A stretch of DNA of 64,000 bases from an uncultured Candidatus Saccharibacteria bacterium (GCA_964424305.1 CAYRHW010000005.1:5746-69745), one strand, 5' to 3'; positions 7,947-62,691 are shown, counted from the first letter of the stretch. A program made the numbers and translations. The notes: a model not told the origin generated them from the sequence alone.

Positions 7947-8010
7947 ATATATTAGAAACCCATATATATACAAATTCTAACACAAGGGTAGTGCTTTATC
8001 AATCAATTTT

Positions 8011-8047
8011 AAAGCAAAAGCCCAGGTTCTAAGGAAAGAACCTGGGC
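8011..8047 (-). terminator. rho-independent terminator of the island-1 gene
   Basis: Minus strand has GCCCAGGTTCT-TTCCTT-AGAACCTGGGC followed by TTTTGCTTT. The hairpin overlaps the last codons of the ORF. Confidence 0.7.
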
Positions 8048-8397
8048 CAAAAAGTAACGACGGATAGAATAAAACCCGCGAGCAGCAGGAAAAAGATAAT
8101 CCCCGCTGCCAATGGGTGACGCTGACCGAACCTTCCGATTACTCGGCCGGTTCCAACAAGGAATCGGCGGAGCTGACGGAAGAACTGTCTGGTCACGCGC
8201 CAGCCCAGAACGAAAAGGGCCCTTACAACCCTCCTCAACATCTCTGCCAACCATCGGACAAGGGAACGCAACTGCCTCCCCATCCATCGATGGACGGCTC
8301 TCGGGCCACCAGCAATTCCCGAAACCATGATGGCGATTCCGTACACCATCAACATCAGGGTCAAAAGAGACCCGAGGACAGTCTCACTGGGATTCAT
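8029..8397 (-). CDS. GC-rich orphan: small membrane protein with two terminal TM helices and an Arg-rich amphipathic middle
   Basis: Start chosen at ATG 8397 (MNPSETVLGSLLTLMLMVYGIAIMVSG...) because GAAGGAG lies 8 nt upstream. The middle reads RQLRSLVRWLAEMLRRVVRALF...RQFFRQLRRFL. Confidence 0.6.
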   Translation of the reverse strand: MNPSETVLGSLLTLMLMVYGIAIMVSGIAGGPRAVHRWMGRQLRSLVRWLAEMLRRVVRALFVLGWRVTRQFFRQLRRFLVGTGRVIGRFGQRHPLAAGIIFFLLLAGFILSVVTFWPRFFP

Positions 8398-8456
8398 CGT
8401 CTTTACTCCTTCAAAGGACAATGGATTAGTTACTACATTTCACTAATCACAGATAT

Positions 8457-8485
8457 ATAATATCACATAATTGTAAGGCTGTCAA
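8457..8485 (-). promoter_or_regulatory. sigma70-type promoter of the island-1 gene
   Basis: Minus strand reads TTGACA (8480-8485), a 17-nt spacer, then TATTAT (8457-8462). Confidence 0.55.
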
Positions 8486-8502
8486 CATTTTAAACACTAT
8501 TC

Positions 8503-9762
8503 CTATTCATACCTCAATGCCTCTATCGGGTCTAATCTTGCGGCACTTCTAGCTGGTAAAACTCCGAAGCCTATCCCAATGGCGCTAGAAACTCCAACGG
8601 CAATAACTATGGCATAAATGGGGACACTGAATACCCAGGCTAAACCACTAGAGATTGCGATGAAGGATATGAGCCAACCCAGCAAGGATCCCAATACAAT
8701 CCCTAAAATCCCGCCCAAAACTGTAACCAAAATCGATTCTATTAAAAACTCACTTAATATGTCTTTATTCGTTGCCCCCAAGGCTTTCTTCAAACCAATC
8801 TCACTTGTTCTTTCGGTAACAACTACATACATAATGTTCATTATCCCCACTCCCCCGACTAATAAAGAGATTGCGGCGATGGCAATAAGTAAAATGGTAA
8901 TGCCATTAAAAATAGTGTTAAAACTTTCTAAGGCCTGTGCCTGAGTAGTTACAGTAAAATCATCTTTGGCTGGATCTGTAATATTATGGTTATCTCTCAT
9001 CGTTTGCCTAATTGCTTCGGCAGTAGACTCTCCCAAATTTGTATCTTTTAACTGCACCACCCCAATGGTTATATAATTAATGCCCAACATCTTCTTCTGC
9101 GCCGTGCCTATTGGCATATACAATCCATCGTCGGCACTTGGGCCACCAACAGCACCCTGAGATTCGTAAACTCCAATAACTTGGAAGTTTAAAGTACCAA
9201 GACGGACCAATTTTCCGATTGGATCGTCTTGTAAAAAAAGGTCGTTGGCTAAATTACTACCCAGAATAACCACTTGAGAGGCACCGGAGTCTTCTGTTTT
9301 TGTATAAAACCTACCGCCCGGCCGTAGGGCATGTTTATCCATGGAGAATCTCTCTGCCGATGCGCCATAGTAGATAACGCTCTTGGCATTATCCCGATAA
9401 CTGGCCACTGCCAAACCCGTTACCATCCCGTAGGCGTTAATAACATTAGGCAATCTTTTGATATTATCTAAATCAACCTGCTTAAAGCTGGTAATCGCAA
9501 CCGCAGAATTAGCCCGGCTAAAATCGGCGCTAGTGGCCGAGTTATTTCTATTCTTTGTTGTGGGCGGAACACGAGTTTCAACAAAAAGTGTATCAGTCCC
9601 CCACGATGCTAATTGGTCATCGATTAAACTCCTGAATCCTTCACCTGCCGATAGAACTAGAATAACAGTAGCAATACCAATAACAATACCCAAAGTAGTT
9701 AAAACCGTCCGAACCGGATTAGCAGATAATACTTTTATTGATTGTTTTAAAGATTTAAACAT
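8503..9762 (-). CDS. ABC transporter permease, MacB/FtsX type
   Basis: 419 aa with an N-terminal TM helix, a large extracytoplasmic domain and a C-terminal FtsX-like 3-TM module (RTSEIGLKKALGATNKDILSEFLIES). Confidence 0.85.
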   Translation of the reverse strand: MFKSLKQSIKVLSANPVRTVLTTLGIVIGIATVILVLSAGEGFRSLIDDQLASWGTDTLFVETRVPPTTKNRNNSATSADFSRANSAVAITSFKQVDLDNIKRLPNVINAYGMVTGLAVASYRDNAKSVIYYGASAERFSMDKHALRPGGRFYTKTEDSGASQVVILGSNLANDLFLQDDPIGKLVRLGTLNFQVIGVYESQGAVGGPSADDGLYMPIGTAQKKMLGINYITIGVVQLKDTNLGESTAEAIRQTMRDNHNITDPAKDDFTVTTQAQALESFNTIFNGITILLIAIAAISLLVGGVGIMNIMYVVVTERTSEIGLKKALGATNKDILSEFLIESILVTVLGGILGIVLGSLLGWLISFIAISSGLAWVFSVPIYAIVIAVGVSSAIGIGFGVLPARSAARLDPIEALRYE

Positions 9763-9763
9763 A

Positions 9764-21669: not shown

Positions 21670-21751
21670 AAGAATATTTAATAAATTAATTAGTATTAAC
21701 CTCGTACGCCTCAACATTAACATATCGCGAGAATGTTTCAAGGACTGATGT

Positions 21752-21800
21752 AAATAAAATCCCCGAGCGAGATTCCCATATTGGGTTTCTACGCTCGGGG
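21752..21800 (-). terminator. rho-independent terminator after the SPFH gene
   Basis: A 9-bp perfect stem CCCCGAGCG/CGCTCGGGG is followed on the minus strand by ATTTTATTT. Confidence 0.6.
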
Positions 21801-21842
21801 TATGTTGGACACTTACAGAACTTCCTGGCCGATGTCGCCGGT

Positions 21843-22787
21843 TCAGTCCTTGATCTGCTCGACCGGGGCGTTGGCCTTCTTCATCTCCGGATGCGGGCCG
21901 TCGGGCTTGAGCATCTGAGAAAGGTTGGTGTTTCCAACCATCTGCTTGACCTGGTCCGCGCTCGTAGAGTACGGGTACAGAATGAAGCAGTTGTTCGGAC
22001 CCATGGCCGCCTGACCCATCACGCGGATCTGGTGCCACATCAGGTACTCGGGAGCGCCGGCGAGCTGCTTCTTGATGATGTCGATGGACTCAGCCACCGC
22101 CTCGGCCTTCTTCAGCTCGACGAGCTTGTCGGCCGTCGCAATCTTGAGCTGGCCCTCACTACGCTTCAGGTCAGCCCGAACTTGAGCTTCCGCCGCCGCT
22201 TCCAGGAGCTGGATCTTCACCAACGATTCCTGGGCCTCGGTTATGCTCTTCGGCCAGTCGTAGTTGGTAATCTGTACATCCTCGATGGTCAGGGGCGTTT
22301 GTTTGGCCTCTTCCATCAAACGCTTGGCCACCTCGGTGGCGATCTTCGGGCTGTTAGCCACGGCCGTTTGTACGTCGGGCTGAACCTCAAAAAGCTGCCG
22401 GGGAATGGCCAGGACCTTCATCTGTAAAAACGTCGTGTAAAGTTGCTCGGCCGAGATGTCGTGCCCCTTGGCCGTGACCGTCTCGAACGCCTTGCGCAAC
22501 TGCTCGTCGTCTTCCGACGACTTGACCCTCACGGTGATGTCAACCCGCAGGTTGACCTTGCCTCCGACCAGGATGTCCAATTTCTCCTTGAAGGTTTGGC
22601 TGGTCGTCTCCAGGGTGTACATGTTGTCGTGGCCATAACAGGTGTGCCGGCCGGGCTTGAGGATGTCCTTCTCCCACCCGTTGGTGGTGCTGATCCGCCC
22701 GCGCTTGCCCTGGGGAACCGTCTCGCTGCATCCGACAGCGAAGGCCAACATCGAAACCGCCATTAGAATGCTCAGTGTTTTCTTCAC
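21843..22787 (-). CDS. SPFH/band-7 domain lipoprotein (GC-rich island)
   Basis: GTG start at 22787 with AGGAGA 6-7 nt upstream. The lipoprotein signal is VKKTLSILMAVSMLAFAVGC. The SPFH core is followed by TIEDVQITNYDWPKSITEAQES and an Ala/Glu-rich coiled coil (LLEAAAEAQVRADLKRSEG). Confidence 0.7.
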   Translation of the reverse strand: MKKTLSILMAVSMLAFAVGCSETVPQGKRGRISTTNGWEKDILKPGRHTCYGHDNMYTLETTSQTFKEKLDILVGGKVNLRVDITVRVKSSEDDEQLRKAFETVTAKGHDISAEQLYTTFLQMKVLAIPRQLFEVQPDVQTAVANSPKIATEVAKRLMEEAKQTPLTIEDVQITNYDWPKSITEAQESLVKIQLLEAAAEAQVRADLKRSEGQLKIATADKLVELKKAEAVAESIDIIKKQLAGAPEYLMWHQIRVMGQAAMGPNNCFILYPYSTSADQVKQMVGNTNLSQMLKPDGPHPEMKKANAPVEQIKD

Positions 22788-22862
22788 GTTTCTTCTCCTA
22801 TTCTCGTTTTCTGCGATCCGCCTAGCACAATGCTTACGGATTTTCACTTCTGGGTTGCTGCG

Positions 22863-23339
22863 TTACTTTTTCTCGACCGGTTGCGTCGCCGCAGAGTTAC
22901 GCTGACGAATCCTCTCGGCCTCGGCCTCCATGGCCTGGTCGAAATTCGTCAGCGCTTTCTCGTGTGGCTTGACTTCGGCGCGCTCCTTCAATTCGGCGCG
23001 CGCCTTGTCCATCTCGTCCTTAGTCGGCAGCTTTGTTTGCTGCAGGCGTTTCTGCTCGGCGTTTTGCGCCGGGTTTTCGTAGGTCGAGACGTTTGTTGTT
23101 GCGTCCTGCATGGCGTTCCACGCGAGGACTCCGCCGACGGCGAACAAGCCGACGACCACGATGGTCGCGATGATGGGGCCGATCGGAGACGGCGTCAGAA
23201 CCGTGTTCTTGCCCGCCGCCTCCACCTTGGTGCCGTATGCCAGCCACATCTTGGTGAGGCCCCACGCCACCAACACTGCCACCACCAACAGCACGATCCA
23301 GTACAGATTGCTCCAGATTAATGTTCCTGCTCCGATCAT
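22863..23339 (-). CDS. 2-TM membrane protein with charged coiled-coil tail, first gene of the SPFH operon
   Basis: Start at ATG 23339 (MIGAGTLIWSNLYWIVLLVVAVLVAWG) with an AGGAAAGGA RBS. The second TM is PIIATIVVVGLFAVGGVLAW. The tail is KDEMDKARAELKERAEVKPHEKAL. Confidence 0.6.
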   Translation of the reverse strand: MIGAGTLIWSNLYWIVLLVVAVLVAWGLTKMWLAYGTKVEAAGKNTVLTPSPIGPIIATIVVVGLFAVGGVLAWNAMQDATTNVSTYENPAQNAEQKRLQQTKLPTKDEMDKARAELKERAEVKPHEKALTNFDQAMEAEAERIRQRNSAATQPVEKK

Positions 23340-23475
23340 GATGCGTTCCTTTCCTAAAAAAGTCCACTGGTTTATGCAAACAGATTCCGTTCTGAAAACG
23401 TTTGTTCTATAAATGTCTCCTAAATGGAAATGTACTATTAATGACGACACACATCGCCATTAACCTATCGTCGTG

Positions 23476-23505
23476 ATTATAGCACACAATTCAAACTATT
23501 GTCAA
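23476..23505 (-). promoter_or_regulatory. sigma70-type promoter of the 2TM-SPFH operon
   Basis: Minus strand reads TTGACA (23500-23505), an 18-nt spacer, then TGCTATAAT (-10 at 23476-23481). Confidence 0.55.
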
Positions 23506-23540: not shown

Positions 23541-23572
23541 TATGAAAAGTTCCCATACCGGAGTATGGGAAC
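23541..23572 (-). terminator. rho-independent terminator of Cys-rich mini-gene A
   Basis: A 10-bp perfect stem GTTCCCATAC-TCCG-GTATGGGAAC is followed by TTTTC on the minus strand. Confidence 0.75.
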
Positions 23573-23596
23573 ATGTTGTGTTTTGCAGCAAAGTTG

Positions 23597-23809
23597 TCAG
23601 GCCACGGTCTGGCCCTCTGGTGTTATAAACCAGAATCCGACATCCGGTCGGCGCGTGCTTTTGCAGGGACCGAGATGCCCCTTTGGAAGGTTGCAGACAA
23701 CCGGGTGGCTTGGATGTAATGAGACACAAAGTGGCTCACTGCAAACACCACACCGACAGTCTCTGGGTACGGCGGGGACAGCGACCGATATTCCGCACAA
23801 ATGACTCAC
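23597..23809 (-). CDS. Cys/His-rich mini-protein A (70 aa), unknown family
   Basis: GTG start with AAGGAG 6 nt upstream, plus its own promoter and terminator. It shares the core C-x-C-G-V...L-C-x-S-L-x-P-x2-P-V-x-C-N-x2-K-G-H-x-G-x-C-x2-T-x2-P-x2-G-x-W with the ORF at 23976-24182. Confidence 0.6.
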   Translation of the reverse strand: MSHLCGISVAVPAVPRDCRCGVCSEPLCVSLHPSHPVVCNLPKGHLGPCKSTRRPDVGFWFITPEGQTVA

Positions 23810-23871
23810 TCTTCGCTCCTTCGAACTAAAGGTACTATGATATCAGGTCGACTCCCGACCCGAACGTTAAC

Positions 23872-23899
23872 ATTATATCAAATATAAAGACGGTGTCAA
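23872..23899 (-). promoter_or_regulatory. sigma70-type promoter of mini-gene A
   Basis: Minus strand reads TTGACA (23894-23899), a 16-nt spacer, then TATAAT (23872-23877). Confidence 0.55.
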
Positions 23900-23910
23900 T
23901 GATAGGCTGT

Positions 23911-23946
23911 GGAAAAGAGAAGGTCCAGTACATGCAGTACTGGACC
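23911..23946 (-). terminator. rho-independent terminator of Cys-rich mini-gene B
   Basis: A 10-bp perfect stem GGTCCAGTAC/GTACTGGACC with a 5-nt loop is followed by TTCTCTTTTC on the minus strand. Confidence 0.75.
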
Positions 23947-23975
23947 ATTTGTTCGTTACTTCCCCGAAAGGAAGT

Positions 23976-24182
23976 CTAGGTCAGGATCGGATCGCCGGCC
24001 TTCTTTTGCCAGATCCCTAGCTCGGGGTGCAAAGTGTTCCGGCACCGTCCCTTGTGACCCTTCTTTCGGTTGCAGGCAACCGGCCTCATCGGCTGCAAGC
24101 TGCCACACAGCTCTACCCCACACTTGCACTTCGTGCTCGTGAGGTTCTCCAGCATGTGTTTGTGGCCACTCTTTTCCTTCAT
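23976..24182 (-). CDS. Cys/His-rich mini-protein B (68 aa), paralog of A
   Basis: ATG start with a GAAGGAG RBS. The core is CKCGVELCGSLQPMRPVACNRKKGHKGRCRNTLHPELGIW. Confidence 0.6.
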   Translation of the reverse strand: MKEKSGHKHMLENLTSTKCKCGVELCGSLQPMRPVACNRKKGHKGRCRNTLHPELGIWQKKAGDPILT

Positions 24183-24245
24183 CTTCTTACTCCTTCTGAT
24201 TCCAGATTGCCTAAAACCTAAACCAAAATCTAACTGAATGATATA

Positions 24246-24273
24246 ATTATAGCATATATATCTAAGTTGTCAA
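24246..24273 (-). promoter_or_regulatory. sigma70-type promoter of mini-gene B
   Basis: Minus strand reads TTGACA (24268-24273), a 16-nt spacer, then TGCTATAAT (-10 at 24246-24251). Confidence 0.55.
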
Positions 24274-24344
24274 ACCAAGATGCTTTATTTAAAAAAAGAG
24301 AGCTCAGCACATATAGCGCCAAGCCCTTTCTCTTTGAATTAATC

Positions 24345-24626
24345 CTACGGAATATTGCTTTGGATTACTTCCCTTAGGAGTTTTCTCCATCGGCCGACAT
24401 GGATGAAAGAACGAATAGCAAGTGCTATCAATATAACTTCCATCAGAATGAATGGCCAACTGCTCTTCAAATCAACCAGGCCACCACCCAAGAGAATAAT
24501 ATGAAAGATTGCCGTCATAATCGTACATCCAACAAACGCAATGGCGACTTTTAGTGTGTCAGTAATGTAGGCCCCTAACCAAGCACTAATCGCCCTCTTG
24601 TTAAGGAGCATTGTGAGTAAAAACAT
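24345..24626 (-). CDS. small membrane protein (about 90 aa), start uncertain (24626 or 24611)
   Basis: Two or three hydrophobic helices (VAIAFVGCTIMTAIFHIILLGGG, WPFILMEVILIALAIRSFI). It overlaps the purC-purE stop. A hairpin plus T7 lies downstream at ~24290-24340. Confidence 0.45.
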   Translation of the reverse strand: MFLLTMLLNKRAISAWLGAYITDTLKVAIAFVGCTIMTAIFHIILLGGGLVDLKSSWPFILMEVILIALAIRSFIHVGRWRKLLREVIQSNIP

Positions 24627-26070
24627 CTCTCTTAACCGGCTTTGAAGTTCGAGGCTTGACCGGTGGCAACTCGCCACTTTCAATGCGCTCAAGCAACTCA
24701 GCCAACCCTGCCGGACCAGTGTAGGCCTGGCCAGTCATTTCGTTAAAGATTACGGGCTGACCCGGAATCCGCAAAATGGAAAGCTGAGCGGCCAACAAGT
24801 CAATATCATCCGCCTCGCCCAGGGCGACACCAGCCACTCGGATGTTTCGGTCGAAATACCGAGCCCAAGCATCAATGATCCCTGGTAAAGCAAGGGCCTT
24901 GCCACCAACTCCAATCACCACGTCGTATTCGAGTAATTCCTCGGTCTCAGTGAGACGCATTACGTCCCAGGGATTCCGATGACAACTCATGACATGGACA
25001 TTGACGCTTTCGTCACTGAAATTCCCGGCCATCCTGACTTTGGGCAGATCGGTCTCACTGCCACAAACAATCAAGACTTTCTTGGCCGGTCTTTCCAGAA
25101 CAGCAACGTGCATTACGCTGCTCAAGTATTGTTCAATGGTTCTCCCAGTCAACCGCCAGAAAATGTAACGATAGGTCTGCGTTGTCTGATCAATGAGGTC
25201 CTGGGGAATAACCATGGCGTGAGCCTTGGCGACATCATCGGGACTTTCGGGTTTAAGTTTGTTGATTCCCTGGCCAATGCCCCAATTTCTGACAAGTTGT
25301 TTGTCTTTTGGCGAGGGAGATTTCCTGCCAGTAGCGGGTGTCCGGCTTTCCAGCCACTCACTACGGTCCAGAAAACGACAGGAGTCGGGCGTGCCGACCT
25401 CATCGCAAACCGTACCATCTTCAGCAAGTTCGAATTTCCCATCTCCCAATATGATGCCATTCTTTATGGCGATGTCAGAAATGATCTGGAAAATCTGCGA
25501 GAGTAAAATTGTGTGCTGAGGATACTTTTTCCTGACTTCGTCAGCCGACATATGTTCATCATGGCCCTCTTCGGCCTTGGTTGTCGGCGTATCAAGAATG
25601 AACGGAAGTTTATCGCCATCCTGCAACCCCGGCATAAGCCGATGGCCACAGATCTGCCCGGTTTCATCATAGGCGGTCTTCCCAGAACCCAACAGAAGAT
25701 AACGGCCGATAAACTCGATCGGCGCCATTTTCTTTTTGCGAACAACCATTGCCCGCGACTGCAAGTCAATATTGCCACGTAAATTCTCTGGCAAATACTT
25801 ATCAATGTCCGCTCCAGCGGCAACGAAGTGAGTTTTGATCCCAAATTCCGAAAGGATGTTAAGCCAGAAATGATTTATTGCGTTCAAAACAATCCCCTTC
25901 AAAGGGACCAGGGCATTAAGAACGAAATCAAAGATACTGATTCCATCCGTTGCCACTACCAATAGGTTGCCATCGGGCAACTCGTAGGTGTCGCGGACTT
26001 TACCGCGAAATAGCAATGTTAATCCTGGTAGCAGTGCTACCCCGGCTCTTGCCGGTGAAAGTGTGGCCAT
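24601..26070 (-). CDS. bifunctional SAICAR synthetase / AIR carboxylase-type protein (PurC-PurE fusion)
   Basis: The N-terminal ~310 aa are PurC-like (LLFRGKVRDTYELPDGNLLVVATDGISIFDFVL). The C-terminal ~170 aa are PurE-like (KVLIVCGSETDLPKV, VHVMSCHRNP, VVIGVGGKALALPGII). Confidence 0.75.
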   Translation of the reverse strand: MATLSPARAGVALLPGLTLLFRGKVRDTYELPDGNLLVVATDGISIFDFVLNALVPLKGIVLNAINHFWLNILSEFGIKTHFVAAGADIDKYLPENLRGNIDLQSRAMVVRKKKMAPIEFIGRYLLLGSGKTAYDETGQICGHRLMPGLQDGDKLPFILDTPTTKAEEGHDEHMSADEVRKKYPQHTILLSQIFQIISDIAIKNGIILGDGKFELAEDGTVCDEVGTPDSCRFLDRSEWLESRTPATGRKSPSPKDKQLVRNWGIGQGINKLKPESPDDVAKAHAMVIPQDLIDQTTQTYRYIFWRLTGRTIEQYLSSVMHVAVLERPAKKVLIVCGSETDLPKVRMAGNFSDESVNVHVMSCHRNPWDVMRLTETEELLEYDVVIGVGGKALALPGIIDAWARYFDRNIRVAGVALGEADDIDLLAAQLSILRIPGQPVIFNEMTGQAYTGPAGLAELLERIESGELPPVKPRTSKPVKRDVFTHNAP

Positions 26071-26256
26071 AAAGGCTCCTTTCCTGATTCCTCTTAGGAA
26101 TCTTCTAATCGTTCTTTAAAAGATCGGTCATTATACTGCAAGTAAACTTTAATAAAATAACGGGGGGATGTCAACGTTAGGTGAATATATTTTCCAAGAA
26201 AAAAGCCCTCTGTCGGAACAAAAGGGCCTCATACTCTTATCTTTAGAACAGCGGGG

Positions 26257-27399: not shown

Positions 27400-27557
27400 C
27401 TCTTTTTCTCCTTTCTGGAAATATTCACTTTTCAAATTGCATAGTTAGCCAAAATATATTTTAAGGCTACGTATAGATAAAATTACACTACTTTGTTGGG
27501 AATGTAAATAAAAAAAATCGCCGGGGGGTGAGTCCAGCGACATTGTTTTTTTCAAAA

Positions 27558-30594
<3,037 letters not shown>

Positions 30595-30758
30595 AGGGAC
30601 CTCACTTTCTTTTTGTGTGGTTAAACAAAAAAATGTAAAAGGGCATAAATTCTTTTTTTCACATTACCTTAAAACTAAATGGCAAGTCAAATAAAAAATG
30701 CAAAAGAAAAGGCCTAGAAGCTTTCGCGTCTTGACCTTTGTGAGTTTGTTGAATCCTA

Positions 30759-33059: not shown

Positions 33060-33087
33060 CTTTTCCTCCCATCTGTTTTGGAGACTT

Positions 33088-43141: not shown

Positions 43142-43327
43142 AGATTTAAATATTAATATATTATACCTTATCTCACACAACCCAACAAACAACCGCAACA
43201 TGTGGATAACTTTTCTTGACTTTACTTTTATCTATTTTCTATGTACAGTAAGGGTAGCACACTCCCGCCATTGTGGAGGGAGAGACCTCTTACAATTTAA
43301 TATGGAAAACTAGAAAGGATCTGGACC

Positions 43328-45022
43328 ATGAAGACGACGACGGCTGCTTGGTTGTTTGTATTTTTTGTTTTCGGATTCTCGGCCCAGGCTCAAGATATTC
43401 CTGGCGGAATCGTTTCTTCCAACGGCAAAGATGCCATCTATCTGGACTATCAGTTGTGCCAAGAAAGGAACCTGACGGCCGACCTTAAGGGGCCGGCAAT
43501 CACGGGACCATTGGCGATTTCAGAAGATGGATTGGTTCTGGCCTGGCTTCAGGGAAACAAATTCCTGACCTGGACGAGCCAAGATGAAAAACCCCGTCCT
43601 ATTGATAACAAATTCCCGCCTACTTTCGGAAAGATCAGAAACATGACACTTTCTCCGGAAGGTGTCCACCTTGCTTTTGAGTCTACCGAGAAAAACACCT
43701 CATTCTTCCTTGTCGAAGCTGGTAAAAGCCAGCCATCGAGATTGGGCGACAGTAGTATTTATCCAAAGTACTTCACGAGAATGGAGGAATATAACGCAAT
43801 CACAATGTCTTATGTTTCTCCCTACATTTCCTGGCGCTATGGGAACACAGGTTTCTACCCGCCCACCTTCCCCATTAGAACAAATGAAACAGTAGATTAT
43901 GCGCCGGGAAAAACCCACAGAGTTGGCGAAGTAACAGAAAGTGTTCTTGGAAGTATTTCAATACCCAATATAAGGGCCGGCCTGAAGGTAACGATCGAGG
44001 AAGCGCACAAGAAGTTCTCGATCAAGCGTGACGCCCACTTTATTGCCTGGCAAAAAGTCTCAACTGATCCCCTCTTCTTTGCCTTGATCTACAAGACAGA
44101 AAAGGGATGGGGACCAATTGAGATCAGAAGCACAGAGCCTCTTTCCTCAACCAATCCCCCCACCGGTCAAAAACCCGGAGTCTGGGAAATCCCTATTCTT
44201 TTGAAAGACTGCCAAAGCCTGGCCTGGAAGCCCGATGGCTCGCTCACCTACTTGAGCGAAGGAAAGGTCTTCTCAATCGAACAGAGATACATCGCAATGG
44301 GGATTGAAAACAGCGGTGTGAAAAAATACAGGGAGCCTGGAAACAGTATCCCGCAATTGGTCCCAGTTAACAATGTCATAAAGGTTACCCCCGAATTGGT
44401 CGCCGAAGGAATCGATGGCGATCGTCTGCACTGGGCCACCAATGACACTTTCCGCTTCCGAGGCAGAGAGGGCAGCCGACGCAACATCACCTCCTGGCAC
44501 AAGGGAGAGATGAAGAAGCTCTGCGCCGCCCCAGAGGAATTTTCCTACTGTGACCGTGCTCCCTTCAGCACTGTCAAACCCACCAACATCGCCGGAACTG
44601 TCTCGGGTAAAGACAAATCCGCCAAGGGTGGCGTGAGCACACAGAAAGGAAACTATCTTCTCTCTGTTGGGAATACCAGTATCAAATGGGAAAGCCGACC
44701 CGACGGTTATTTCAGAATTTGGGGTGGAGGAAAGGGTGATCACTATGCCCTCCCACCCGAATCCAATATCGATGATGTCTACGATCCTTCCAAATACGAT
44801 TTCAAGAAAATGCCGGACAGGTATACAACCGGAACTCCGCGTTTTGTTGACATCAAACCAAACCAAATCCTATTGCTCAAATCCAACAACAAATACACAG
44901 CAATCAAACCGCTGGAAGACAAAGATGGCGGACAAGCCACCCAAATGACCTACGAATGGAAATTCTGGGCAGCCCCTCCAATCATTTCGGCGAGAACAAA
45001 CTCTCCAACTGAGAGTAAATAG
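43328..45022 (+). CDS. GC-rich orphan: secreted protein (564 aa), unknown function
   Basis: The signal peptide is MKTTTAAWLFVFFVFGFSAQA. Repeated beta-strand-like segments (LAWLQGNKFLTWTS, LAWKPDGSLTYLSEGKVFSIE) hint at a beta-propeller. I recognise no catalytic motif. Confidence 0.6.
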   Translation: MKTTTAAWLFVFFVFGFSAQAQDIPGGIVSSNGKDAIYLDYQLCQERNLTADLKGPAITGPLAISEDGLVLAWLQGNKFLTWTSQDEKPRPIDNKFPPTFGKIRNMTLSPEGVHLAFESTEKNTSFFLVEAGKSQPSRLGDSSIYPKYFTRMEEYNAITMSYVSPYISWRYGNTGFYPPTFPIRTNETVDYAPGKTHRVGEVTESVLGSISIPNIRAGLKVTIEEAHKKFSIKRDAHFIAWQKVSTDPLFFALIYKTEKGWGPIEIRSTEPLSSTNPPTGQKPGVWEIPILLKDCQSLAWKPDGSLTYLSEGKVFSIEQRYIAMGIENSGVKKYREPGNSIPQLVPVNNVIKVTPELVAEGIDGDRLHWATNDTFRFRGREGSRRNITSWHKGEMKKLCAAPEEFSYCDRAPFSTVKPTNIAGTVSGKDKSAKGGVSTQKGNYLLSVGNTSIKWESRPDGYFRIWGGGKGDHYALPPESNIDDVYDPSKYDFKKMPDRYTTGTPRFVDIKPNQILLLKSNNKYTAIKPLEDKDGGQATQMTYEWKFWAAPPIISARTNSPTESK

Positions 45023-45068
45023 TTCGCAATTAAATAGGCCCCTAGGTACCAACCTCCGGGCTCTTTTG

Positions 45069-45686
45069 TTACTCCCAGGAAAAAGATTTACGATGGATGG
45101 GACACTGGCCCACCGTTTTTAACACCTTCCGATGAGAAGCAGTTGGATATCCTTTGTGCTTTTTAAATCCATACTCTGGATATTTCTTGTCATATTTCAC
45201 CATTATTCTATCCCTAGTAACTTTAGCAATAATACTAGCTGAAGAAATTGAAAAAACTTTTTGATCTCCTTTTATTATCGACTTCTGAGAAATCTCTGAA
45301 ACTATTTTAAAGTTTCCATCTAGAAGTAAATAGCCGATATTCCCCTTTAATTTTCTCTGAACCTGTCTAATCGATCTTAGCATAGCGAGTTTAGTCGCCT
45401 CTAAGATATTTATCCTATCGATTACCTTTTCTGAAACTATACCAATCCCCCACCATAGGTCTTTGTGATTAATTAAAATACTATAGATACTTTCTCTTTG
45501 GTTTTCGGAAAGTTTCTTGGAATCATTTACTTTTAACGACCTAACAACCTTCTCTGATTTAATTATGACGACAGCTGCAACAACTGGACCGGCCAAAGGG
45601 CCCCTTCCTGCCTCATCTAAACCAGCGACAAACTTAAATCCCTTCTTCCACAATTTCTTTTCTTCATTAAAATTTGGATATTTCAT
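45069..45686 (-). CDS. rnhB: ribonuclease HII
   Basis: Contains GLDEAGRGPLAGPVVAA, DSKKLS, ASIIAKVTRD and GYP. Confidence 0.9.
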   Translation of the reverse strand: MKYPNFNEEKKLWKKGFKFVAGLDEAGRGPLAGPVVAAVVIIKSEKVVRSLKVNDSKKLSENQRESIYSILINHKDLWWGIGIVSEKVIDRINILEATKLAMLRSIRQVQRKLKGNIGYLLLDGNFKIVSEISQKSIIKGDQKVFSISSASIIAKVTRDRIMVKYDKKYPEYGFKKHKGYPTASHRKVLKTVGQCPIHRKSFSWE

Positions 45687-48964: not shown

Positions 48965-49014
48965 ATCACAGAGTAACTTTATCAAAAAATAGTTTTCTAC
49001 TCTATATATATTTT

Positions 49015-49051
49015 AAAACCCCTCTCTGCGCGTTGCGTGGAGAGGGGTTTT
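49015..49051. terminator. bidirectional rho-independent terminator between dnaE and the island-5 gene
   Basis: AAAA-CCCCTCTC-(13 nt)-GAGAGGGG-TTTT. Confidence 0.7.
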
Positions 49052-49087
49052 ACTGTTCAGGGTCTTGAGACCAGGAGCAGTTTGAAG

Positions 49088-49588
49088 TTACTTGCGACGG
49101 GAGAAAACGAAGCGATAATCGCCAGCCCAGGCGCTGCCGGGGCTGTCACAATAGCCGTCGAGCCACAGGCCATCGTCATCGCGCCCCACGCCGAACAACC
49201 TGAGGCTGCCATCCGAACCGGTAATCGGCTCCGTGCCGATCACCAGCCACTCTCCCTTGGGCTGATCCGCGTACTGCAGACGGAGCTGGAGGGCGACCTC
49301 GGGTGCGCAAAGTTGGAGACCACGTGATTTGGCACGGGCGTAGATGTCCTCCCTCTTAGCTCCATCCTTGAAAGTGAAACGGGCGACGGTGACGACGACG
49401 AGGTCCACTTCGGTTCCCTCGGTGGCTACCGTGAGACCGACCTTTTTGAGGATGTCATCGGCCCAGTCGCCGATCTTCATTCCGCCAGCCTCGATGGCCT
49501 GGCGGAATTCATCAACGGTTTTGGGACCGGTGCCGAGCTTCACAGTCTTGAAGACCCTGAAGCTGTAGCCACCTTTCTTCTGCCTCAT
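49088..49588 (-). CDS. GC-rich orphan: hypothetical cytoplasmic protein (166 aa)
   Basis: Track ORF with a GAAAGGA RBS. I recognise no motif and see no TM helix or signal peptide. Confidence 0.55.
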   Translation of the reverse strand: MRQKKGGYSFRVFKTVKLGTGPKTVDEFRQAIEAGGMKIGDWADDILKKVGLTVATEGTEVDLVVVTVARFTFKDGAKREDIYARAKSRGLQLCAPEVALQLRLQYADQPKGEWLVIGTEPITGSDGSLRLFGVGRDDDGLWLDGYCDSPGSAWAGDYRFVFSRRK

Positions 49589-49654
49589 GGCACACGTCCT
49601 TTCTTCGTCTGTTCGCCAAGAAATTACCTCTACCCGAGGTTAAGGGGCTGACCG

Positions 49655-49711
49655 TAGCAGTCATAGCCAGAAAGCACCAAACTCCTATTAGTACCTTTTG
49701 GCTATGACTGC
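49655..49711. repeat. 14-bp perfect inverted repeat upstream of the island-5 gene
   Basis: AGCAGTCATAGCCA (49655-49668) and TGGCTATGACTGCT (49698-49711) are separated by 29 nt. Confidence 0.8.
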
Positions 49712-49848
49712 TGGATCGCAAGTAAAATTGGATATTAAAGTACAGTTTTTATTGAGCTTTTATTATGCCACTACTAAAACACAACGTCAATCGTTTACGC
49801 CCGAAAATAAAGGTGGTAAGATTAAAAATACTATTCTTAATAAAAAAC

Positions 49849-55788: not shown

Positions 55789-56684
55789 TGCAGAAACTAA
55801 TAGTTATCTTGGGGCCAACGGCTTCCGGGAAAACCAGCCTATCAATTAAACTCGCCAAAAAGTTCAATGGGGAGATAATTTCGGCTGATTCACGACAGGT
55901 ATATAAAGGTATGGATATTGGGACCGGCAAAGTTACAAAAAAGGAGATGCAGGGTGTCCCCCACTATTTACTTAATGTAGTTTCACCAAAAGTAATTTTT
56001 GATGTTACCCAATTTAAAAAATTAGCAGATAAAGCAATCTCCAACATCTATAATAAAAACAGAATCCCGTTCCTTGTCGGTGGCACTGGTTTTTACATAC
56101 AGACCGTAACTGACAATATAGTGTTGCCGAATGTGAAACCAGATTGGAAACTACGGAAAAAACTAGAAAAAAAATCAGTAGTAGAATTGCACAAAATGCT
56201 GGGCAAACTAGACCCAAGAAGGGCGAAGACCATTGATAAAAACAACCCTAGGCGCCTAATAAGGGCCCTAGAAATCGTCATTAAATCAAAAGGGCCCGTC
56301 AGCCCATTGTCCCCCCAAAAACCCAATTTTAGCACCCTATTTCTGGGGGTTAAAAGAAATGATAAAGAACTAAAAGGATTAATTAAAAAAAGGCTAATTG
56401 AGAGACTGAAGTCTGGGATGGTAAAAGAGATAACAAACCTCCACAAATCCGGTGTTTCCTGGGGGCGCCTTGAAGAATTTGGTTTAGAATATCGATACAT
56501 TACTCAATATCTACAGGGAAAACTTGATTACGACGAGATGGTAGATAGATTGCAAAAAGAGATTGAACATTATGCTAAAAGACAAATGACTTGGTTTAAA
56601 AGAAATAACAGGATAAAATGGGTTAAAGAGTATAAAGAAGCAGAGAGAAGGTGCAAAACCTTCCTATTGACAAACAAGAAATAA
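55788..56684 (+). CDS. miaA: tRNA dimethylallyltransferase
   Basis: Begins MQKLIVILGPTASGKTSLSIKLAKKFNGEIISADSRQVYKGMDIGTGK. The start overlaps the miaB stop (TAATG). Confidence 0.9.
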   Translation: MQKLIVILGPTASGKTSLSIKLAKKFNGEIISADSRQVYKGMDIGTGKVTKKEMQGVPHYLLNVVSPKVIFDVTQFKKLADKAISNIYNKNRIPFLVGGTGFYIQTVTDNIVLPNVKPDWKLRKKLEKKSVVELHKMLGKLDPRRAKTIDKNNPRRLIRALEIVIKSKGPVSPLSPQKPNFSTLFLGVKRNDKELKGLIKKRLIERLKSGMVKEITNLHKSGVSWGRLEEFGLEYRYITQYLQGKLDYDEMVDRLQKEIEHYAKRQMTWFKRNNRIKWVKEYKEAERRCKTFLLTNKK

Positions 56685-56694
56685 GTGCTATAAT
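56667..56694 (+). promoter_or_regulatory. sigma70-type promoter of the first island-6 gene (its -35 lies inside the last miaA codons)
   Basis: TTGACA (56667-56672), a 16-nt spacer, then TGCTATAAT (-10 at 56689-56694). Confidence 0.55.
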
Positions 56695-56745
56695 TAGTCT
56701 AGTGGTCAACCATTTCCCCCAACCCCTGTGTGAAGGAGCACGAGC

Positions 56746-56991
56746 ATGAAAATGGCAAAAAGGACGTTCGTAAAAGGCTTGATGACCTGGATCGCTCTCC
56801 TGCTAATCATCGCAGGGATCGCCGGGGGCGTCGAGTCCTTCTTTGTACGAGGCCCCGGAGGGCTCATCTGGCTACTCGGGAGCCTCCTCTGTCTCGGAGT
56901 GGCCTGGATCGTCCAGGTCAAAAGGGACAAGATCTCCCTCTACAAGGACCTCAGAAATTCTCGTTTTGAGGAGAGATTTCTCCCAAGGTGA
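56746..56991 (+). CDS. GC-rich orphan: small 2-TM membrane protein (81 aa)
   Basis: GAAGGAG lies 7 nt upstream. The TM helices are LMTWIALLLIIAGIAGGV and LIWLLGSLLCLGVAWIV. Confidence 0.6.
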   Translation: MKMAKRTFVKGLMTWIALLLIIAGIAGGVESFFVRGPGGLIWLLGSLLCLGVAWIVQVKRDKISLYKDLRNSRFEERFLPR

Positions 56992-57061
56992 CTGATGCAA
57001 CTGCGTCAGACACACGGGGCTGCACTACGGTGTGGCCCTGTTTCTTTACACTTTTCTACTG

Positions 57062-57091
57062 TTGACAATATGCAACTATGTATGTCATAAT
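57062..57091 (+). promoter_or_regulatory. sigma70-type promoter of the second island-6 gene
   Basis: TTGACA (57062-57067), a 17-18-nt spacer, then TCATAAT. Confidence 0.5.
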
Positions 57092-57161
57092 CGGAATAGA
57101 CGGTGAGGAGCGTTTCCCATCGTCGGAAATATTGAGGAACGTTGAAATCAAGGAGCAAACC

Positions 57162-57482
57162 ATGTTGCGAATTAGAAACGCGATTTTCTGGTATGGGATA
57201 ACGACAGCGCTCTTTCTTCTGGCTGTTGGAGGCATCTTCGCCTTCATCGGGATGAAGATGGAAGAACTCCTGTTCTGCCGGTTCGCCGATTGTAGCCTGT
57301 TTCTGGGCATCTACGTGGCAATCGGCATTCTGCTGGCGACCGGGCTCATCGAGATCTTCCGTCGCTGCTATAGGCGATACGCCACAGCCAGGGCGGAGGC
57401 GGAAAAAAGGTTCCTCCGCCGCCTTGCCCGCAATCAAGCGGCTTGGGAACGGGATGCCAATCGCAATTACGACCCCCTTTAG
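57162..57482 (+). CDS. GC-rich orphan: small 2-TM membrane protein with Arg-rich tail (106 aa)
   Basis: Start at MLRIRNAIFWYGITTALFLLAVGGIFAF with AAGGAG 6 nt upstream. The track start 57078 lies upstream of the predicted transcription start. Confidence 0.6.
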   Translation: MLRIRNAIFWYGITTALFLLAVGGIFAFIGMKMEELLFCRFADCSLFLGIYVAIGILLATGLIEIFRRCYRRYATARAEAEKRFLRRLARNQAAWERDANRNYDPL

Positions 57483-57503
57483 GGGGAGGGCTCAAACAAG
57501 CCA

Positions 57504-57540
57504 AGGTCACACCGTCATCATACGAGTGTGACCTTTTGCT
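57504..57540 (+). terminator. rho-independent terminator
   Basis: AGGTCACAC-(13 nt)-GTGTGACCT followed by TTTGCTTT. Confidence 0.7.
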
Positions 57541-57632
57541 TTAAGCAATTAACGTCTAGCAGATAATATGCTATAGTATAATCGCTTAAATTTCTTGTTT
57601 AAATCGCGCACCTTAAAATCGAGGAGAATCTC

Positions 57633-57863
57633 ATGGAGAAAGATAGAACATCGCTACGAGTGATCAATGAAAAGATTATGAACTTTTGGGGTCTATCAAC
57701 GGTTATCCTGCTGTTGATCGCAATTATCGCACTCTTAGCCGCTGCCCACACGGCTCTAATTTGGATTCTCCTATTTGTCCTATGCAAAAGTTTCCTTGCT
57801 AGTATCGCAACGACAATCCTACGTCTCTGCATATTTATCAATGAAAAACGCAAAAAAAACTAA
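57633..57863 (+). CDS. small 2-TM membrane protein (76 aa), N-terminus similar to the preceding gene
   Basis: GAGGAG lies 6 nt upstream. Compare LRVINEKIMNFWGLSTVILLLIAIIALL with LRIRNAIFWYGITTALFLLAVGGIFAF. Confidence 0.6.
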   Translation: MEKDRTSLRVINEKIMNFWGLSTVILLLIAIIALLAAAHTALIWILLFVLCKSFLASIATTILRLCIFINEKRKKN

Positions 57864-57867
57864 AGCG

Positions 57868-57898
57868 GCCACACCGTATGCACGGATGTGGCTTTTCT
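57868..57898 (+). terminator. rho-independent terminator
   Basis: GCCACACCG-TATGCA-CGGATGTGGC followed by TTTTCTCTT. Confidence 0.7.
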
Positions 57899-57970
57899 CT
57901 TGTCCTAATTAATCCCTAGATACTTCTGTCAGACAAGCCCCGTTTTATTGCCCTTTTTTATTACTTAATA

Positions 57971-59893: not shown

Positions 59894-59895
59894 AA

Positions 59896-61205: not shown

Positions 61206-61816
61206 TAAAGTAGCTTTGAAATTATGTCTTTTACCTGATTAAATACCTCGGGGATTGTTTTCTCTCCGTCTATGATCACTACATTTTCTATCTTGCCGGG
61301 TAGGATTTCGTAGGTTTTCCAAACTTTAGCTAATTTCTCTTGTTTCTCAAAAAGTGTTTTTGCAGTTCCCCTCTTCTCTATCCTATCAATACAAACCTCT
61401 GGCCTTACTTTTAGAATAATGGCTTGGTCGGGTAATAAAAAGTTATCATTAATTTTGATAAGCCAGTCTAGGTCTAACCCGTCTGAAGAGCCGTAGGCAA
61501 ATGTTGAAAGAAAATATCTGTCAGATATTACCCACTTTCCTTCTTTTAATGCGGGGATAATAACTTTCTCTAAATGCTCTCTTCGGTCCTCTGACATTAA
61601 CTCCTGTATCTCCTGGGGTTCAACTTTAACCTTTTGATCTAATATTTCTCTTAACTTTTTTCCTGCTTCAGATTCCTTTGTCGGCTCTTTGGTCATCACA
61701 ACCCCAAACCCCCTCTCTGTTAAGAAATCTTTTAAGAGAACCATTTGAGTAGATTGCCCAGATCCATCTAGGCTATCAAAAACAATGAATTTACCAGGGT
61801 ATGTATTTTTAATCAT
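61205..61816 (-). CDS. tmk: thymidylate kinase
   Basis: Contains the P-loop region FIVFDSLDGSGQST and the DRY motif (ISDRYFLSTFAY). Its stop overlaps the thyA start (TAATG). Confidence 0.85.
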   Translation of the reverse strand: MIKNTYPGKFIVFDSLDGSGQSTQMVLLKDFLTERGFGVVMTKEPTKESEAGKKLREILDQKVKVEPQEIQELMSEDRREHLEKVIIPALKEGKWVISDRYFLSTFAYGSSDGLDLDWLIKINDNFLLPDQAIILKVRPEVCIDRIEKRGTAKTLFEKQEKLAKVWKTYEILPGKIENVVIIDGEKTIPEVFNQVKDIISKLL

Positions 61817-61879
61817 GTTTTCTTATTAGTTTAAATATTGTATCACAACCAAATCTTCAAAAAAAGAGGGTAAAAAATT

Positions 61880-61907
61880 ATTGACACAGCACATCAATTC
61901 TATATAA
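61880..61907 (+). promoter_or_regulatory. sigma70-type promoter of the dCTP deaminase-like gene
   Basis: TTGACA (61880-61885), a 16-nt spacer, then TATAAT (61902-61907). Confidence 0.55.
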
Positions 61908-61963
61908 TAAAGGATCTTTTCAATTAGTAATGTATTTTGACAATCAACAGAAAGGAGCCTCCT

Positions 61964-62641
61964 ATGAGACCCCCGATGCGATCGCTTTTGAGCACAGCCC
62001 AAATCCTCCGCCATATAAAGCTGGGGAACATATTTATCTCCCCATTTGTGCGTCCGAACCTCAAAACAACGAGCTACGACGTAAGATTGGGAGAAAACTT
62101 TTTCCAGGAACAACCATTCAGGACATCTCTCCGCAGAATTTTCAATCCGTTTAACCCGAGTGACATCGCCAGATACTGGGGCAAACCCCAGAAGGCGATG
62201 TTGGCCAGCGATTGGACAAAAGAAAACGGACCACTGGAAAACATCCGACCCGATGACAGGATTATTATACTGGGCCCAGGAGAAACGGTTCTGGCCCATA
62301 CTGAAGAGTTCATCGGTGGTAGAAATTGCGTCACTACAGAAATGAGAGCCAGAAGCTCCATGGGGAGAATTGGTATTACGGTATGTAAATGCGCGGGCTG
62401 GGGAGACCTGGGATTTTGCAACCGTTGGACAATGGAAATGTCTAACCATCTAAAAGACACTCCCGTGATCCTGGTTGTTGGCATGCGAGTTGCCCAAATG
62501 GCCTTTTACCAAGTTGACCCCTTAGCAGGATCTTATGTCGGAACAGGCGGCCAATATCAGGCTACCGACGATACAGAAAAAATGATTGCTGAATGGTCTC
62601 CGCAATCAATGTTGCCCAAATTCTCAAGGGAAAACTACTAA
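61964..62641 (+). CDS. dcd: dCTP deaminase / dUTPase-superfamily protein (GC-richer than flanks)
   Basis: Start at ATG 61964 with AAAGGAG 6 nt upstream. Contains ILRHIKLGNIFISPF, SYDVRLG, and a RSSMGRIGI...AGWGDLGF...WTMEM pattern typical of Dcd. Confidence 0.7.
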   Translation: MRPPMRSLLSTAQILRHIKLGNIFISPFVRPNLKTTSYDVRLGENFFQEQPFRTSLRRIFNPFNPSDIARYWGKPQKAMLASDWTKENGPLENIRPDDRIIILGPGETVLAHTEEFIGGRNCVTTEMRARSSMGRIGITVCKCAGWGDLGFCNRWTMEMSNHLKDTPVILVVGMRVAQMAFYQVDPLAGSYVGTGGQYQATDDTEKMIAEWSPQSMLPKFSRENY

Positions 62642-62658
62642 TAGCTATTTAAAACATC

Positions 62659-62691
62659 AAAAAAGCCATGCTTTCGAGCAAGGCTTTTTTC
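62659..62691. terminator. bidirectional rho-independent terminator between the convergent dcd and dCMP deaminase genes
   Basis: AAAAA-AGCCATGCT-TTCG-AGCAAGGCT-TTTTTT. Confidence 0.7.

Follow-up and report, generated by a model that had tools for sequence, protein, structure and literature searches.

Seven GC-rich islands in an AT-rich Staskawiczbacteria-like contig are probably accessory genes acquired piecemeal within the Patescibacteria

How did seven GC-rich gene segments come to lie among AT-rich core genes of a candidate phyla radiation (CPR) bacterium, with no recognizable mobility gene beside them? The question is raised by a 64,000-nucleotide stretch of metagenomic DNA deposited under an uncultured Candidatus Saccharibacteria bacterium (GCA_964424305.1, CAYRHW010000005.1:5746-69745), which was analysed as a whole and is called the window here. 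An earlier note on this DNA had read the segments as self-contained expression cassettes acquired repeatedly, possibly from a higher-GC host of an episymbiont. Repeated acquisition of foreign-composition accessory genes without a recognizable mobility gene was borne out by a foreign codon, amino-acid and dinucleotide signature and by variable occupancy. The islands are foreign in composition and variably occupied, their families are affiliated with Patescibacteria, and they recur as GC-rich islets in other genomes. Probably, they are accessory genes that were acquired piecemeal and at different times from the phylum's own gene pool, with GC-richer lineages (~55-60% GC) as the ultimate sources. 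The whole is a gene-transfer mosaic of an already known kind.

At 42% GC overall, the window combines a 38% GC backbone with seven GC-rich stretches in a mosaic. The 200-nt GC profile peaked at 8001-8400, 21701-24200, 24501-34700 (patchy), 43301-45100, 49001-49700, 56701-57600 and 62001-62600 (islands 1 to 7). Codon-position statistics, computed with curated gene starts, showed a GC of 0.384 ± 0.024 and a third-position GC (GC3) of 0.359 ± 0.044 for the backbone coding sequences (n = 45), and a GC3 of 0.44-0.82 for the island coding sequences (z = +1.8 to +10.5 against the backbone), in which GC at the first and second positions (GC1, GC2) was raised as well. Profile and GC3 agree with the seven segments of G/C-rich codons that the earlier note had located by eye. 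Its Arg/Ala/Gly-rich products were likewise found: Gly, Ala, Arg and Pro make up 0.281 of the island proteins versus 0.213 of the backbone proteins, and Lys 0.061 versus 0.091. The GC-normalised dinucleotide signatures of islands 2, 3 and 5 and of purH in island 3 lay beyond the 95th percentile of equal-size backbone chunks (the test covers these four, islands 1, 6 and 7 being individually too short). The composition profile proposed as a check in the earlier note thus showed islands that differ from their flanks in GC3, amino acids and dinucleotides. Two other sources of the GC peaks were considered and rejected. Structured RNA is one, the Rfam and ARAGORN scans giving three tRNAs and an L10 leader, none of them inside an island; high expression is the other, the ribosomal genes rplL, rplJ and rpsP being low in GC3.

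Abrupt GC steps on a metagenomic contig might also be produced by assembly or binning, if a GC-rich organism's reads had been joined to a CPR contig. The region 39088-59588, which holds islands 4-6 and all their junctions, was 99.995-100% identical to two ENA MEGAHIT contigs (ERZ27248937 and ERZ27248961) and to one Logan contig from a separate run (SRR8437217). Islands 2-3 were found in identical order on one ENA contig, and part of island 3 on a Logan contig. The presence of identical islands and junctions in independent assemblies indicates that they are not assembly chimeras. In addition, functional-looking predicted promoters lie at the junctions, one of them overlapping miaA, and a comparable mosaic is seen in related genomes from other studies; a chimeric origin is extremely improbable. 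A sharp rise in GC along a CPR contig should not be taken for contamination and removed during annotation or binning.

The DnaE protein is 80% identical to that of the Candidatus Staskawiczbacteria metagenome-assembled genome L004 (JBAZYR01), 68% to that of L005 and 62% to that of L017, and the gene order rpsP-rnc-nusB-rpmF ... rnhB-dnaE-thrS ... miaB-miaA ... gatB is conserved in relatives; the backbone is close to Candidatus Staskawiczbacteria. The intervals rpmF-rnhB, dnaE-thrS and miaA-gatB and the one downstream of rpmG are conserved among L004, L005, L017, L101 and L103. Occupancy of these intervals was compared for islands 3, 4, 5 and 6, with two to four relatives per locus. The clearest case is island 5, which consists of the following elements:

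48965..49848, minus strand: island 5, 884 bp, inserted between dnaE (stop codon) and thrS (start codon)
49088-49588, minus strand: coding sequence of 166 aa, GC3 0.73, a homologue of the variable proteins of diversity-generating retroelements (DGRs)
~49016-49052, minus strand: terminator hairpin
49790-49762, minus strand: promoter-like site, matching the consensus at 10/12 positions
49656-49712: hairpin in the 5′ untranslated region (5′-UTR), arms GTCATAGCC and GGCTATGAC, loop of ~25-30 nt

The island-5 site is empty in L004, L005, L007 and L017: thrS starts 1-2 nt past the dnaE stop in L004, and the two genes are adjacent in the other three. Across the CPR, dnaE and thrS are separated by 0 to 3.9 kb. 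A hotspot that imposes GC on whatever it receives was rejected, as the inserts at this place in other CPR genomes are not GC-rich. Island 5 is an insertion absent from those four relatives, and the islands differ in age, as shown by islands 4 and 6:

39333-41873, minus strand: PKD-domain surface protein of 846 aa, GC-elevated via GC2 (0.57), with a backbone-like GC3 of 0.37
43217..45075, plus strand: island 4, with a weak promoter and a short terminator
43328-45022, plus strand: island 4 coding sequence, 564 aa, GC3 0.54, signal peptide (AQA/QD) read by eye
56667..57900, plus strand: island 6, three units for small membrane proteins
Island 6 unit 1, plus strand: promoter 56667-56694 (12/12, -35 box in miaA), coding sequence 56746-56991 (81 aa), terminator 57014-57041
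Island 6 unit 2, plus strand: promoter 57062-57091, coding sequence 57162-57482 (106 aa), terminator ~57506-57533
Island 6 unit 3, plus strand: promoter-like site 57549-57577, coding sequence 57633-57863 (76 aa), terminator ~57866-57895

In L005, rpmF abuts rnhB, so island 4 is absent there, and the contiguity of the two genes makes the whole of 39333-45060 accessory. The GC of the PKD-domain gene in this region is due to the amino-acid composition of its product, whose relative in L004 (1958-7147, minus strand, 1729 aa) is 27% identical. In L004 a homologue of the island 4 protein lies at the same locus, with 33% identity and a GC3 of 0.56 versus ~0.40-0.47 for the L004 backbone. The 564-aa protein has no known domain and belongs to a small family that evolves fast (129 clusters among 1.84 billion representatives). 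The miaA-gatB gap measures 556 bp in L005, where island 6 is absent; L004 has two different GC-rich small transmembrane (TM) genes and a bPH gene there, versus three small TM genes in the window. L004 (18748-18776) and the window (56667-56694) share a promoter that has an extended -10 (TG) and whose -35 box falls in the last miaA codons; in both it is predicted to drive a GC-rich small two-TM protein. The first island 6 gene and the first L004 gene, the latter also GC-rich, show weak homology (30% over 50 aa, E 3e-5).

Island 3 is the purine-nucleotide block, which lies downstream of rpmG:

24299..34741, minus strand: island 3, several units
33088-34716, minus strand: guaA
32529-33059, minus strand: pgpA, followed by a terminator at 32512-32492
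30759-32381, minus strand: purH, GC3 0.63
29062-30594, minus strand: guaB
27558-29048, minus strand: purA
26257-27399, minus strand: purM-like gene, followed by a terminator at 26225-26206 and a promoter-like site at 26174-26146
24601-26070, minus strand: purC-purE fusion, SAICAR synthetase N-terminal and AIR carboxylase C-terminal
24345-24611, minus strand: 88-aa TM open reading frame (ORF), its start overlapping the purC-purE stop (ATGCTCCTTAA), followed by a terminator at 24327-24299

In L101 (Ga0265595_1002169) and L103 (Ga0268276_1000620), whose relatedness to the window is 83% for the KH protein, 66-70% for trmD and 66-69% for rpmG, purH lies directly downstream of rpmG with a GC3 of 0.57-0.58 in a 0.40 backbone. 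It is the sole shared island 3 gene, as guaA, pgpA, guaB, purA, purM and purCE were not found at the rpmG-purH locus of either genome. L103 has an extra 2-kb GC-rich unit (5846-7888: promoter, ORFs of 269 and 285 aa without a Pfam match, terminator) between the rpmG terminator and purH; at that spot L101 has no such unit but two consecutive terminators (1931-2003). GC-rich island genes at the same loci across the lineage, which the earlier note had set against its own reading, were therefore found for part of the islands: purH in L101 and L103, and island 4 and the first island 6 gene in L004, but not island 5, which is absent. These same-locus counterparts imply that islands 3 (purH), 4 and 6 (first gene) are not recent insertions private to this genome.

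To which lineages do the island families belong? Three island proteins were searched against 5.8 billion proteins: PurH, the 166-aa island 5 protein and the SPFH/Band-7 lipoprotein of island 2, which is composed as follows:

21751..23505, minus strand: island 2a, a two-gene unit with a promoter at 23505-23476 (12/12)
22863-23339, minus strand: two-TM protein of 158 aa, GC3 0.80
21843-22787, minus strand: SPFH/Band-7 lipoprotein, GC3 0.82, lipobox AVGC read by eye
21800-21761, minus strand: terminator hairpin, then a T-run
23549..24273, minus strand: island 2b, two tandem paralogous Cys-rich small proteins (50% identity, E 2e-14)
23976-24182, minus strand: first island 2b gene, 68 aa, promoter 24273-24246 (12/12), terminator 23946-23922
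23597-23809, minus strand: second island 2b gene, 70 aa, promoter 23899-23872 (12/12), terminator 23572-23549

The named homologues of the three proteins were mostly Staskawiczbacteria, Parcubacteria and other Patescibacteria, at 50-71% identity. The best matches of PurH were 60-63% identical, the named ones being Staskawiczbacteria, Buchananbacteria, Patescibacteria and one labelled 'archaeon'. Among 74 homologues of Band-7, the sole near-full-length named match was from Staskawiczbacteria (62% identity), and one 48% match was labelled Petrotogales; the 226 homologues of the island 5 protein included named ones from Staskawiczbacteria or Parcubacteria. The taxonomy check that the earlier note had called for, run on these three proteins, thus returned Patescibacteria families and no foreign host, and its suggestion of a higher-GC host as donor was not supported, the 'archaeon' and Petrotogales labels aside.

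That a non-Patescibacteria host of the episymbiont supplied the islands would fit their GC richness and a cargo that includes nucleotide-metabolism genes from which a symbiont could profit; moreover, the GC-rich contigs L096, L097 and L107, which carry the closest PurH sequences, are known by composition and not by taxonomy. However, the named best matches of the three proteins were all Patescibacteria bar the one 'archaeon' label, the best identities reached only 60-71%, and the families are small and lineage-restricted (the Band-7, island 5 and island 4 counts given above). PurH, PurA, PurC and PurM scored below the NCBIfam equivalog cut-offs, suggesting lineage-specific versions and not ordinary bacterial ones. 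Such a host is a very unlikely donor. A phage vector was also considered and dropped, since IMG/VR scans with the island 5 protein, Band-7 and PurH singly gave nothing.

The same families recur as GC-rich islets at other loci. purH has a GC of 0.49 in a 0.33 backbone on a 738-kb Staskawiczbacteria contig (L086) and 0.54 in ~0.40 in L084, at unrelated loci. The pair of TM and Band-7 genes has a GC of 0.52 in 0.37 (L090) and 0.52 in ~0.40 (L093), at other loci and with the promoter-UTR-ORFs-terminator layout kept. The island 5 homologue has a GC of 0.56 in 0.36 in L095, and matches its own backbone in the 60% GC, 1.17-Mb contig L094. A metagenome scan with the PurH-clade alignment yielded 62 loci flanked by 2 kb or more on the contig. 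purH GC was above that of the flanks in 60/62 loci, with a mean excess of +0.073, a maximum of +0.22 and an excess above +0.08 in 27 of the 62; by our own estimate, +0.02-0.04 might be expected of any conserved enzyme. In AT-rich backbones, purH GC3 formed a continuum from 0.21 to 0.72. The GC of first and second positions taken together (GC12) tracked the gene's own GC3 (partial r 0.61, p 2e-7) and not the backbone once GC3 was controlled (0.24, p 0.07), and the same was true of Lys/(Lys+Arg) (partial r -0.39, p 0.002, versus -0.03, p 0.81). The PurH sequences closest to that of the window (L096, L097 and L107; 62-63% identity) have flanks of 0.54-0.56 GC. In a neighbour-joining (NJ) tree of the PurH clade the window grouped with L097/L107 at 76% bootstrap, the only other supported group being an 18-member clade at 100%, and the syntenic relatives L101 and L103 were placed apart from the window. 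That many AT-rich genomes show a recurring GC excess in the same families, and in one direction, poses a modest but testable population-genetic puzzle.

Several observations weigh against piecemeal acquisition from the phylum's gene pool. Identity at four-fold sites between the window genome and L004 (0.21-0.35) is at the level expected by chance (0.25-0.27), which amounts to saturation; together with the same-locus GC-rich homologues, this calls either for hotspots at which genes are replaced time and again or for some force that retards amelioration. The closest homologues among the 5.8 billion proteins are 60-71% identical, the donor is not pinned to any genome, and no transfer is demonstrably recent. 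The PurH NJ tree is star-like with weak internal support, and the outcome of polarising synonymous changes in L101 versus L103 purH with four outgroups varied with outgroup GC. Spacer GC is 0.39 inside the islands versus 0.357 in the backbone, the GC excess being limited to coding sequence, and such AT-rich spacers imply that multi-gene blocks were not imported whole and unchanged.

These points bear on a rival view in which the island genes are old and vertically inherited, and their GC is actively maintained by GC-biased gene conversion, at accessory loci prone to recombination, or by selection on transcripts or codons, with no recent import. It would account for the GC-rich homologues kept at the same locus despite synonymous saturation (island 4 and the first island 6 gene in L004, purH in L101 and L103), for the miaA-internal promoter conserved in L004, and for an excess that is confined to coding sequence between AT-rich spacers. 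In addition, the purH genes of L101 and L103 have diverged at 42% of synonymous third positions, but GC3 stands at 0.57-0.58 in each, with polarised changes about balanced. However, fully AT-rich members of the family exist (purH GC3 0.21-0.26 in L128 and L160), implying that there is no intrinsic GC requirement, and the dependence of GC12 and Lys/Arg on the gene's own GC3 and not on the backbone argues against synonymous-site selection. Two neighbouring accessory genes that evolve fast, h174 and h231, are AT-rich in the window and in L004 alike, and GC shifts within <100 bp at the borders of genes, a sharpness that conversion tracts can hardly explain. Finally, the island 5 site is empty in four relatives, and the window purH groups with sequences on GC-rich contigs and not with the syntenic relatives. 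Active maintenance is for these reasons an unlikely explanation.

A bolder proposal, which we regard as improbable without dismissing it, is that GC-rich units expressing single genes persist as a class of their own in AT-rich Parcubacteria. Purine enzymes, SPFH lipoproteins, small membrane proteins and DGR targets would belong to this class, and its units would move from the GC-rich to the AT-rich part of the phylum, settling again in the same gaps between terminator and promoter. If true, a compositional dimorphism of core and accessory genes would outlast synonymous saturation, and there would have to be either an unrecognised insertion route, for example transformation and recombination guided by shared promoter and terminator sequences, or a force that blocks amelioration.

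The remaining islands and the layout of the units bear on how the genes may have entered:

8019..8485, minus strand: island 1, promoter 8485-8457 (TTGACA-17-TATTAT with TG), ribosome-binding site (RBS) GAAGGAG
8029-8397, minus strand: island 1 coding sequence, membrane protein of 122 aa, GC3 0.63
8048-8019, minus strand: island 1 terminator hairpin, overlapping the stop codon of the coding sequence
61881..62695, plus strand: island 7, promoter 61881-61908 (12/12), RBS GAAAGGAG, terminator ~62660-62690
61964-62641, plus strand: island 7 dCTP deaminase, GC3 0.52

The 122-aa protein of island 1 had no Pfam or PHROG match. The Cys-rich proteins of island 2b, with the motif C-x-CG...C...P..CN..KGH.G.C...G.W, matched no family, and the PHROG scans matched only Band-7, as a generic lipoprotein family. 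The neighbours of island 7 (tmk, thyA, folA and a dCMP deaminase) are of native composition.

Eight perfect (12/12) TTGACA-N16-18-TATAAT sites were found in the window, five of them leading into islands (24273, 23899, 23505, 56667 and 61881) and three into backbone genes. Two further sites leading into island units match at 11/12 positions (8485 and 57062). The sites of islands 3 and 5 match at 10/12 only and that of island 4 is weak, so the near-consensus promoter that the earlier note had assigned to every segment stands for a part of them. GGAG-type RBSs and GC hairpin/T-run terminators, as it had described, were seen at nearly all island units, and the -35 box within the last miaA codons was confirmed. 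Other parts of its picture had to be given up. Segment 3 is not a single unit, since internal terminators and AT-rich spacers split it into at least four or five, each with its own boundaries. AT-rich housekeeping genes do not flank every segment on both sides: island 1 lies between a serpin gene and an ABC permease gene, and islands 2 and 3 abut. The self-contained layout is not special either, as consensus promoters and terminators are shared by backbone genes and by homologues elsewhere, including the 60% GC genome L094 with its promoter grammar TTGACA...TATAAC. Genes in these compact genomes are ordinarily laid out as promoter, RBS, ORF and terminator.

The Pfam scan of island and backbone ORFs gave no integrase, transposase or recombinase domain, and repeat searches at the island borders gave only chance-level direct or inverted matches. 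An apparent 'inverted repeat' linking two islands turned out to be a pair of consensus promoters that face opposite ways. None of the tRNAs (2928, 17022 and 35982) borders an island. No attC-like R'/R'' sites, conserved border motifs or target duplications were found, the hairpins being plain terminators with T-runs. The lack of an integrase, transposase, flanking repeat or tRNA-adjacent att site reported in the earlier note therefore holds for the window.

One may still ask whether an unrecognised cassette-mobilising system, for instance a recombinase that resembles those of integrons or is guided by hairpins and works on terminator stems, moves the promoter-ORF-terminator units. Hairpins mark the borders of the units, the L101/L103 indel starts right after a terminator and ends with one, three genomes carry the two-gene Band-7 unit at unrelated loci, complete with promoter and terminator each time, and the 5′-UTR hairpin of the island 5 unit is kept in two genomes. 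Nevertheless, the window gave no recombinase, integrase or transposase domain and its units no shared border motifs, target duplications or attC-like sites; the units carry promoters, which integron cassettes do not, and purifying selection against gene disruption suffices to explain junctions between terminator and promoter. Such a system is very improbable.

If piecemeal acquisition from the phylum's gene pool is correct, island genes would settle in insertion-tolerant gaps between core operons (downstream of rpmG, rpmF-rnhB, dnaE-thrS and miaA-gatB), where only insertions between a terminator and the next promoter would survive selection. That each unit has its promoter, RBS and terminator follows from the one-gene-one-unit grammar that is normal in compact genomes, GC-rich relatives included. 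The GC3 spread of 0.44-0.82 may reflect different donors and stages of amelioration. As for the entry route, DNA uptake followed by recombination would be the most economical reading: homologous recombination via conserved flanks where the donor was related, otherwise illegitimate recombination, in neither case with a dedicated integrase.

Mobile elements are linked to one island. The island 5 family has a conserved body and a hypervariable C-terminal part of ~45 residues. Its members adjoin bAvd, reverse transcriptase (RT) and a template repeat (TR) in L094 (3929-7656), in L095 (285-2833) and in the IMG/VR viral contig L194 (8001-10893). Mismatches between the cognate TR and variable repeat (VR) fell at TR adenines in 17/17 cases in L095, 15/18 and 23/24 in L094, and 23/26 and 27/32 in L194, and the 3′ end of the window gene aligned to the TRs of all three over 138-147 nt. 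In the 64-kb window itself, tblastn found no RT or Avd, and no TR-like repeat was seen. The predicted model of the protein has a pLDDT of 89, and its top PDB matches are C-type lectins (Mincle, NKp65 and NKR-P1), weak ones with E 0.05-0.5 and TM 0.35-0.5. On sequence grounds, island 5 is a putative orphan DGR variable-protein gene; the window copy is either an orphan or a remote DGR target. A family-alignment scan gave three viral contigs with island 5 relatives, one of them with a full DGR, and these contigs link mobile elements to island 5 only. The arms of the 5′-UTR hairpin are identical in L095 (195-240), so that the hairpin is kept upstream of family genes in two distant genomes and may be a cis-regulatory RNA element. 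As a marker in viral contigs the hairpin pattern was of no use: none of its 18 IMG/VR matches lay beside an island 5 homologue, a number about that expected by chance by our own estimate.

To our knowledge, de novo nucleotide synthesis is absent from most Patescibacteria. This Staskawiczbacteria-like genome would have assembled the later purine pathway gene by gene (purE/C, purM-like, purH, purA, guaB and guaA) and added a dCTP deaminase. Among the window ORFs scanned, purB, purF, purD, purN and purL were not seen. The PurC-then-PurE domain order of the fusion protein is that of animal PAICS.

The AT-rich backbone holds accessory genes as well, namely h174, h231 and a Kazal-domain protein gene (53236-54531, plus strand) of backbone composition without an L004 counterpart, implying that a GC scan reveals only part of the accessory genome. 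A full-length serpin gene (6693-7973, minus strand; Pfam E 7e-125) also has AT-rich backbone composition, so that two types of protease inhibitor, serpin and Kazal, occur in one CPR genome. After gatB, the window has folA-thyA-tmk (59896-61816, minus strand, backbone composition) versus a 496-aa ThyX (Thy1) in L004 (21582-23072, minus strand); between these close relatives thymidylate synthase has been replaced non-orthologously, a change that is invisible to a GC scan. The ribosomal protein L10 leader (4557-4672, minus strand; Rfam RF00557, 44.5 bits, just over the gathering score) lies upstream of rplJ-rplL.

Integron cassettes resemble the islands in being small, mostly single-ORF units that end in a hairpin, with cargo of unknown function or membrane-related; unlike them, the island units have their own promoters and are scattered singly, with no intI, no attC R'/R'' and no array. 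With classical integrative genomic islands they share compositional deviation and sporadic presence among relatives, but not a mobility gene, repeats or a tRNA att site. Horizontally acquired genes reportedly ameliorate towards the composition of their new genome (Lawrence and Ochman, 1997). Like this model, the islands show a GC3 continuum from donor-like to recipient-like in which the codon positions shift together; unlike it, some genes are GC-rich at the same locus in deeply diverged relatives, where the model predicts ameliorated copies.

In bacterial genomes at large, accessory genes are concentrated at a few fixed intervals, and many such hotspots lack an integrase. The islands are similar to core-genome insertion hotspots in that they lie between syntenic core genes and their content differs between relatives at the same interval. 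Hotspots of insertion and deletion between conserved core genes were described in the genome dynamics of E. coli (PMC2617782), a well-sampled species with many closed genomes, whereas here two to four synonymously saturated relatives were available per locus. The DGR variable proteins of CPR bacteria (PMC8144416) are the comparison system for island 5: as in that system, family members lie beside bAvd and RT, and their C-terminal VR differs from a TR almost only at adenines. A C-type-lectin-like fold may be a further likeness, the top fold matches being C-type lectins, though weak ones. The window gene departs from it in standing alone between dnaE and thrS, with no RT, Avd or TR within 64 kb.

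A published parallel is a groundwater survey of 125 aquifer Patescibacteria genomes, in which IslandViewer and MetaCHIP were applied to metagenome-assembled genomes; hundreds of genomic islands were found, and of the genes transferred singly most had passed between Patescibacteria (PMC12455944, mSystems 2025). Deviant segments in small CPR genomes, transfer within the Patescibacteria and the acquisition of nucleotide-metabolism genes are common to that survey and the window. The recurrence of purH, of the TM and Band-7 pair and of a DGR target as GC-rich single-gene units, and the directional bias by which 60/62 purH loci are GC-richer than their flanks, are features seen here and not described in the survey. 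In the window, the metabolism of an ultra-small symbiont appears to have been patched via gene flow within the phylum.

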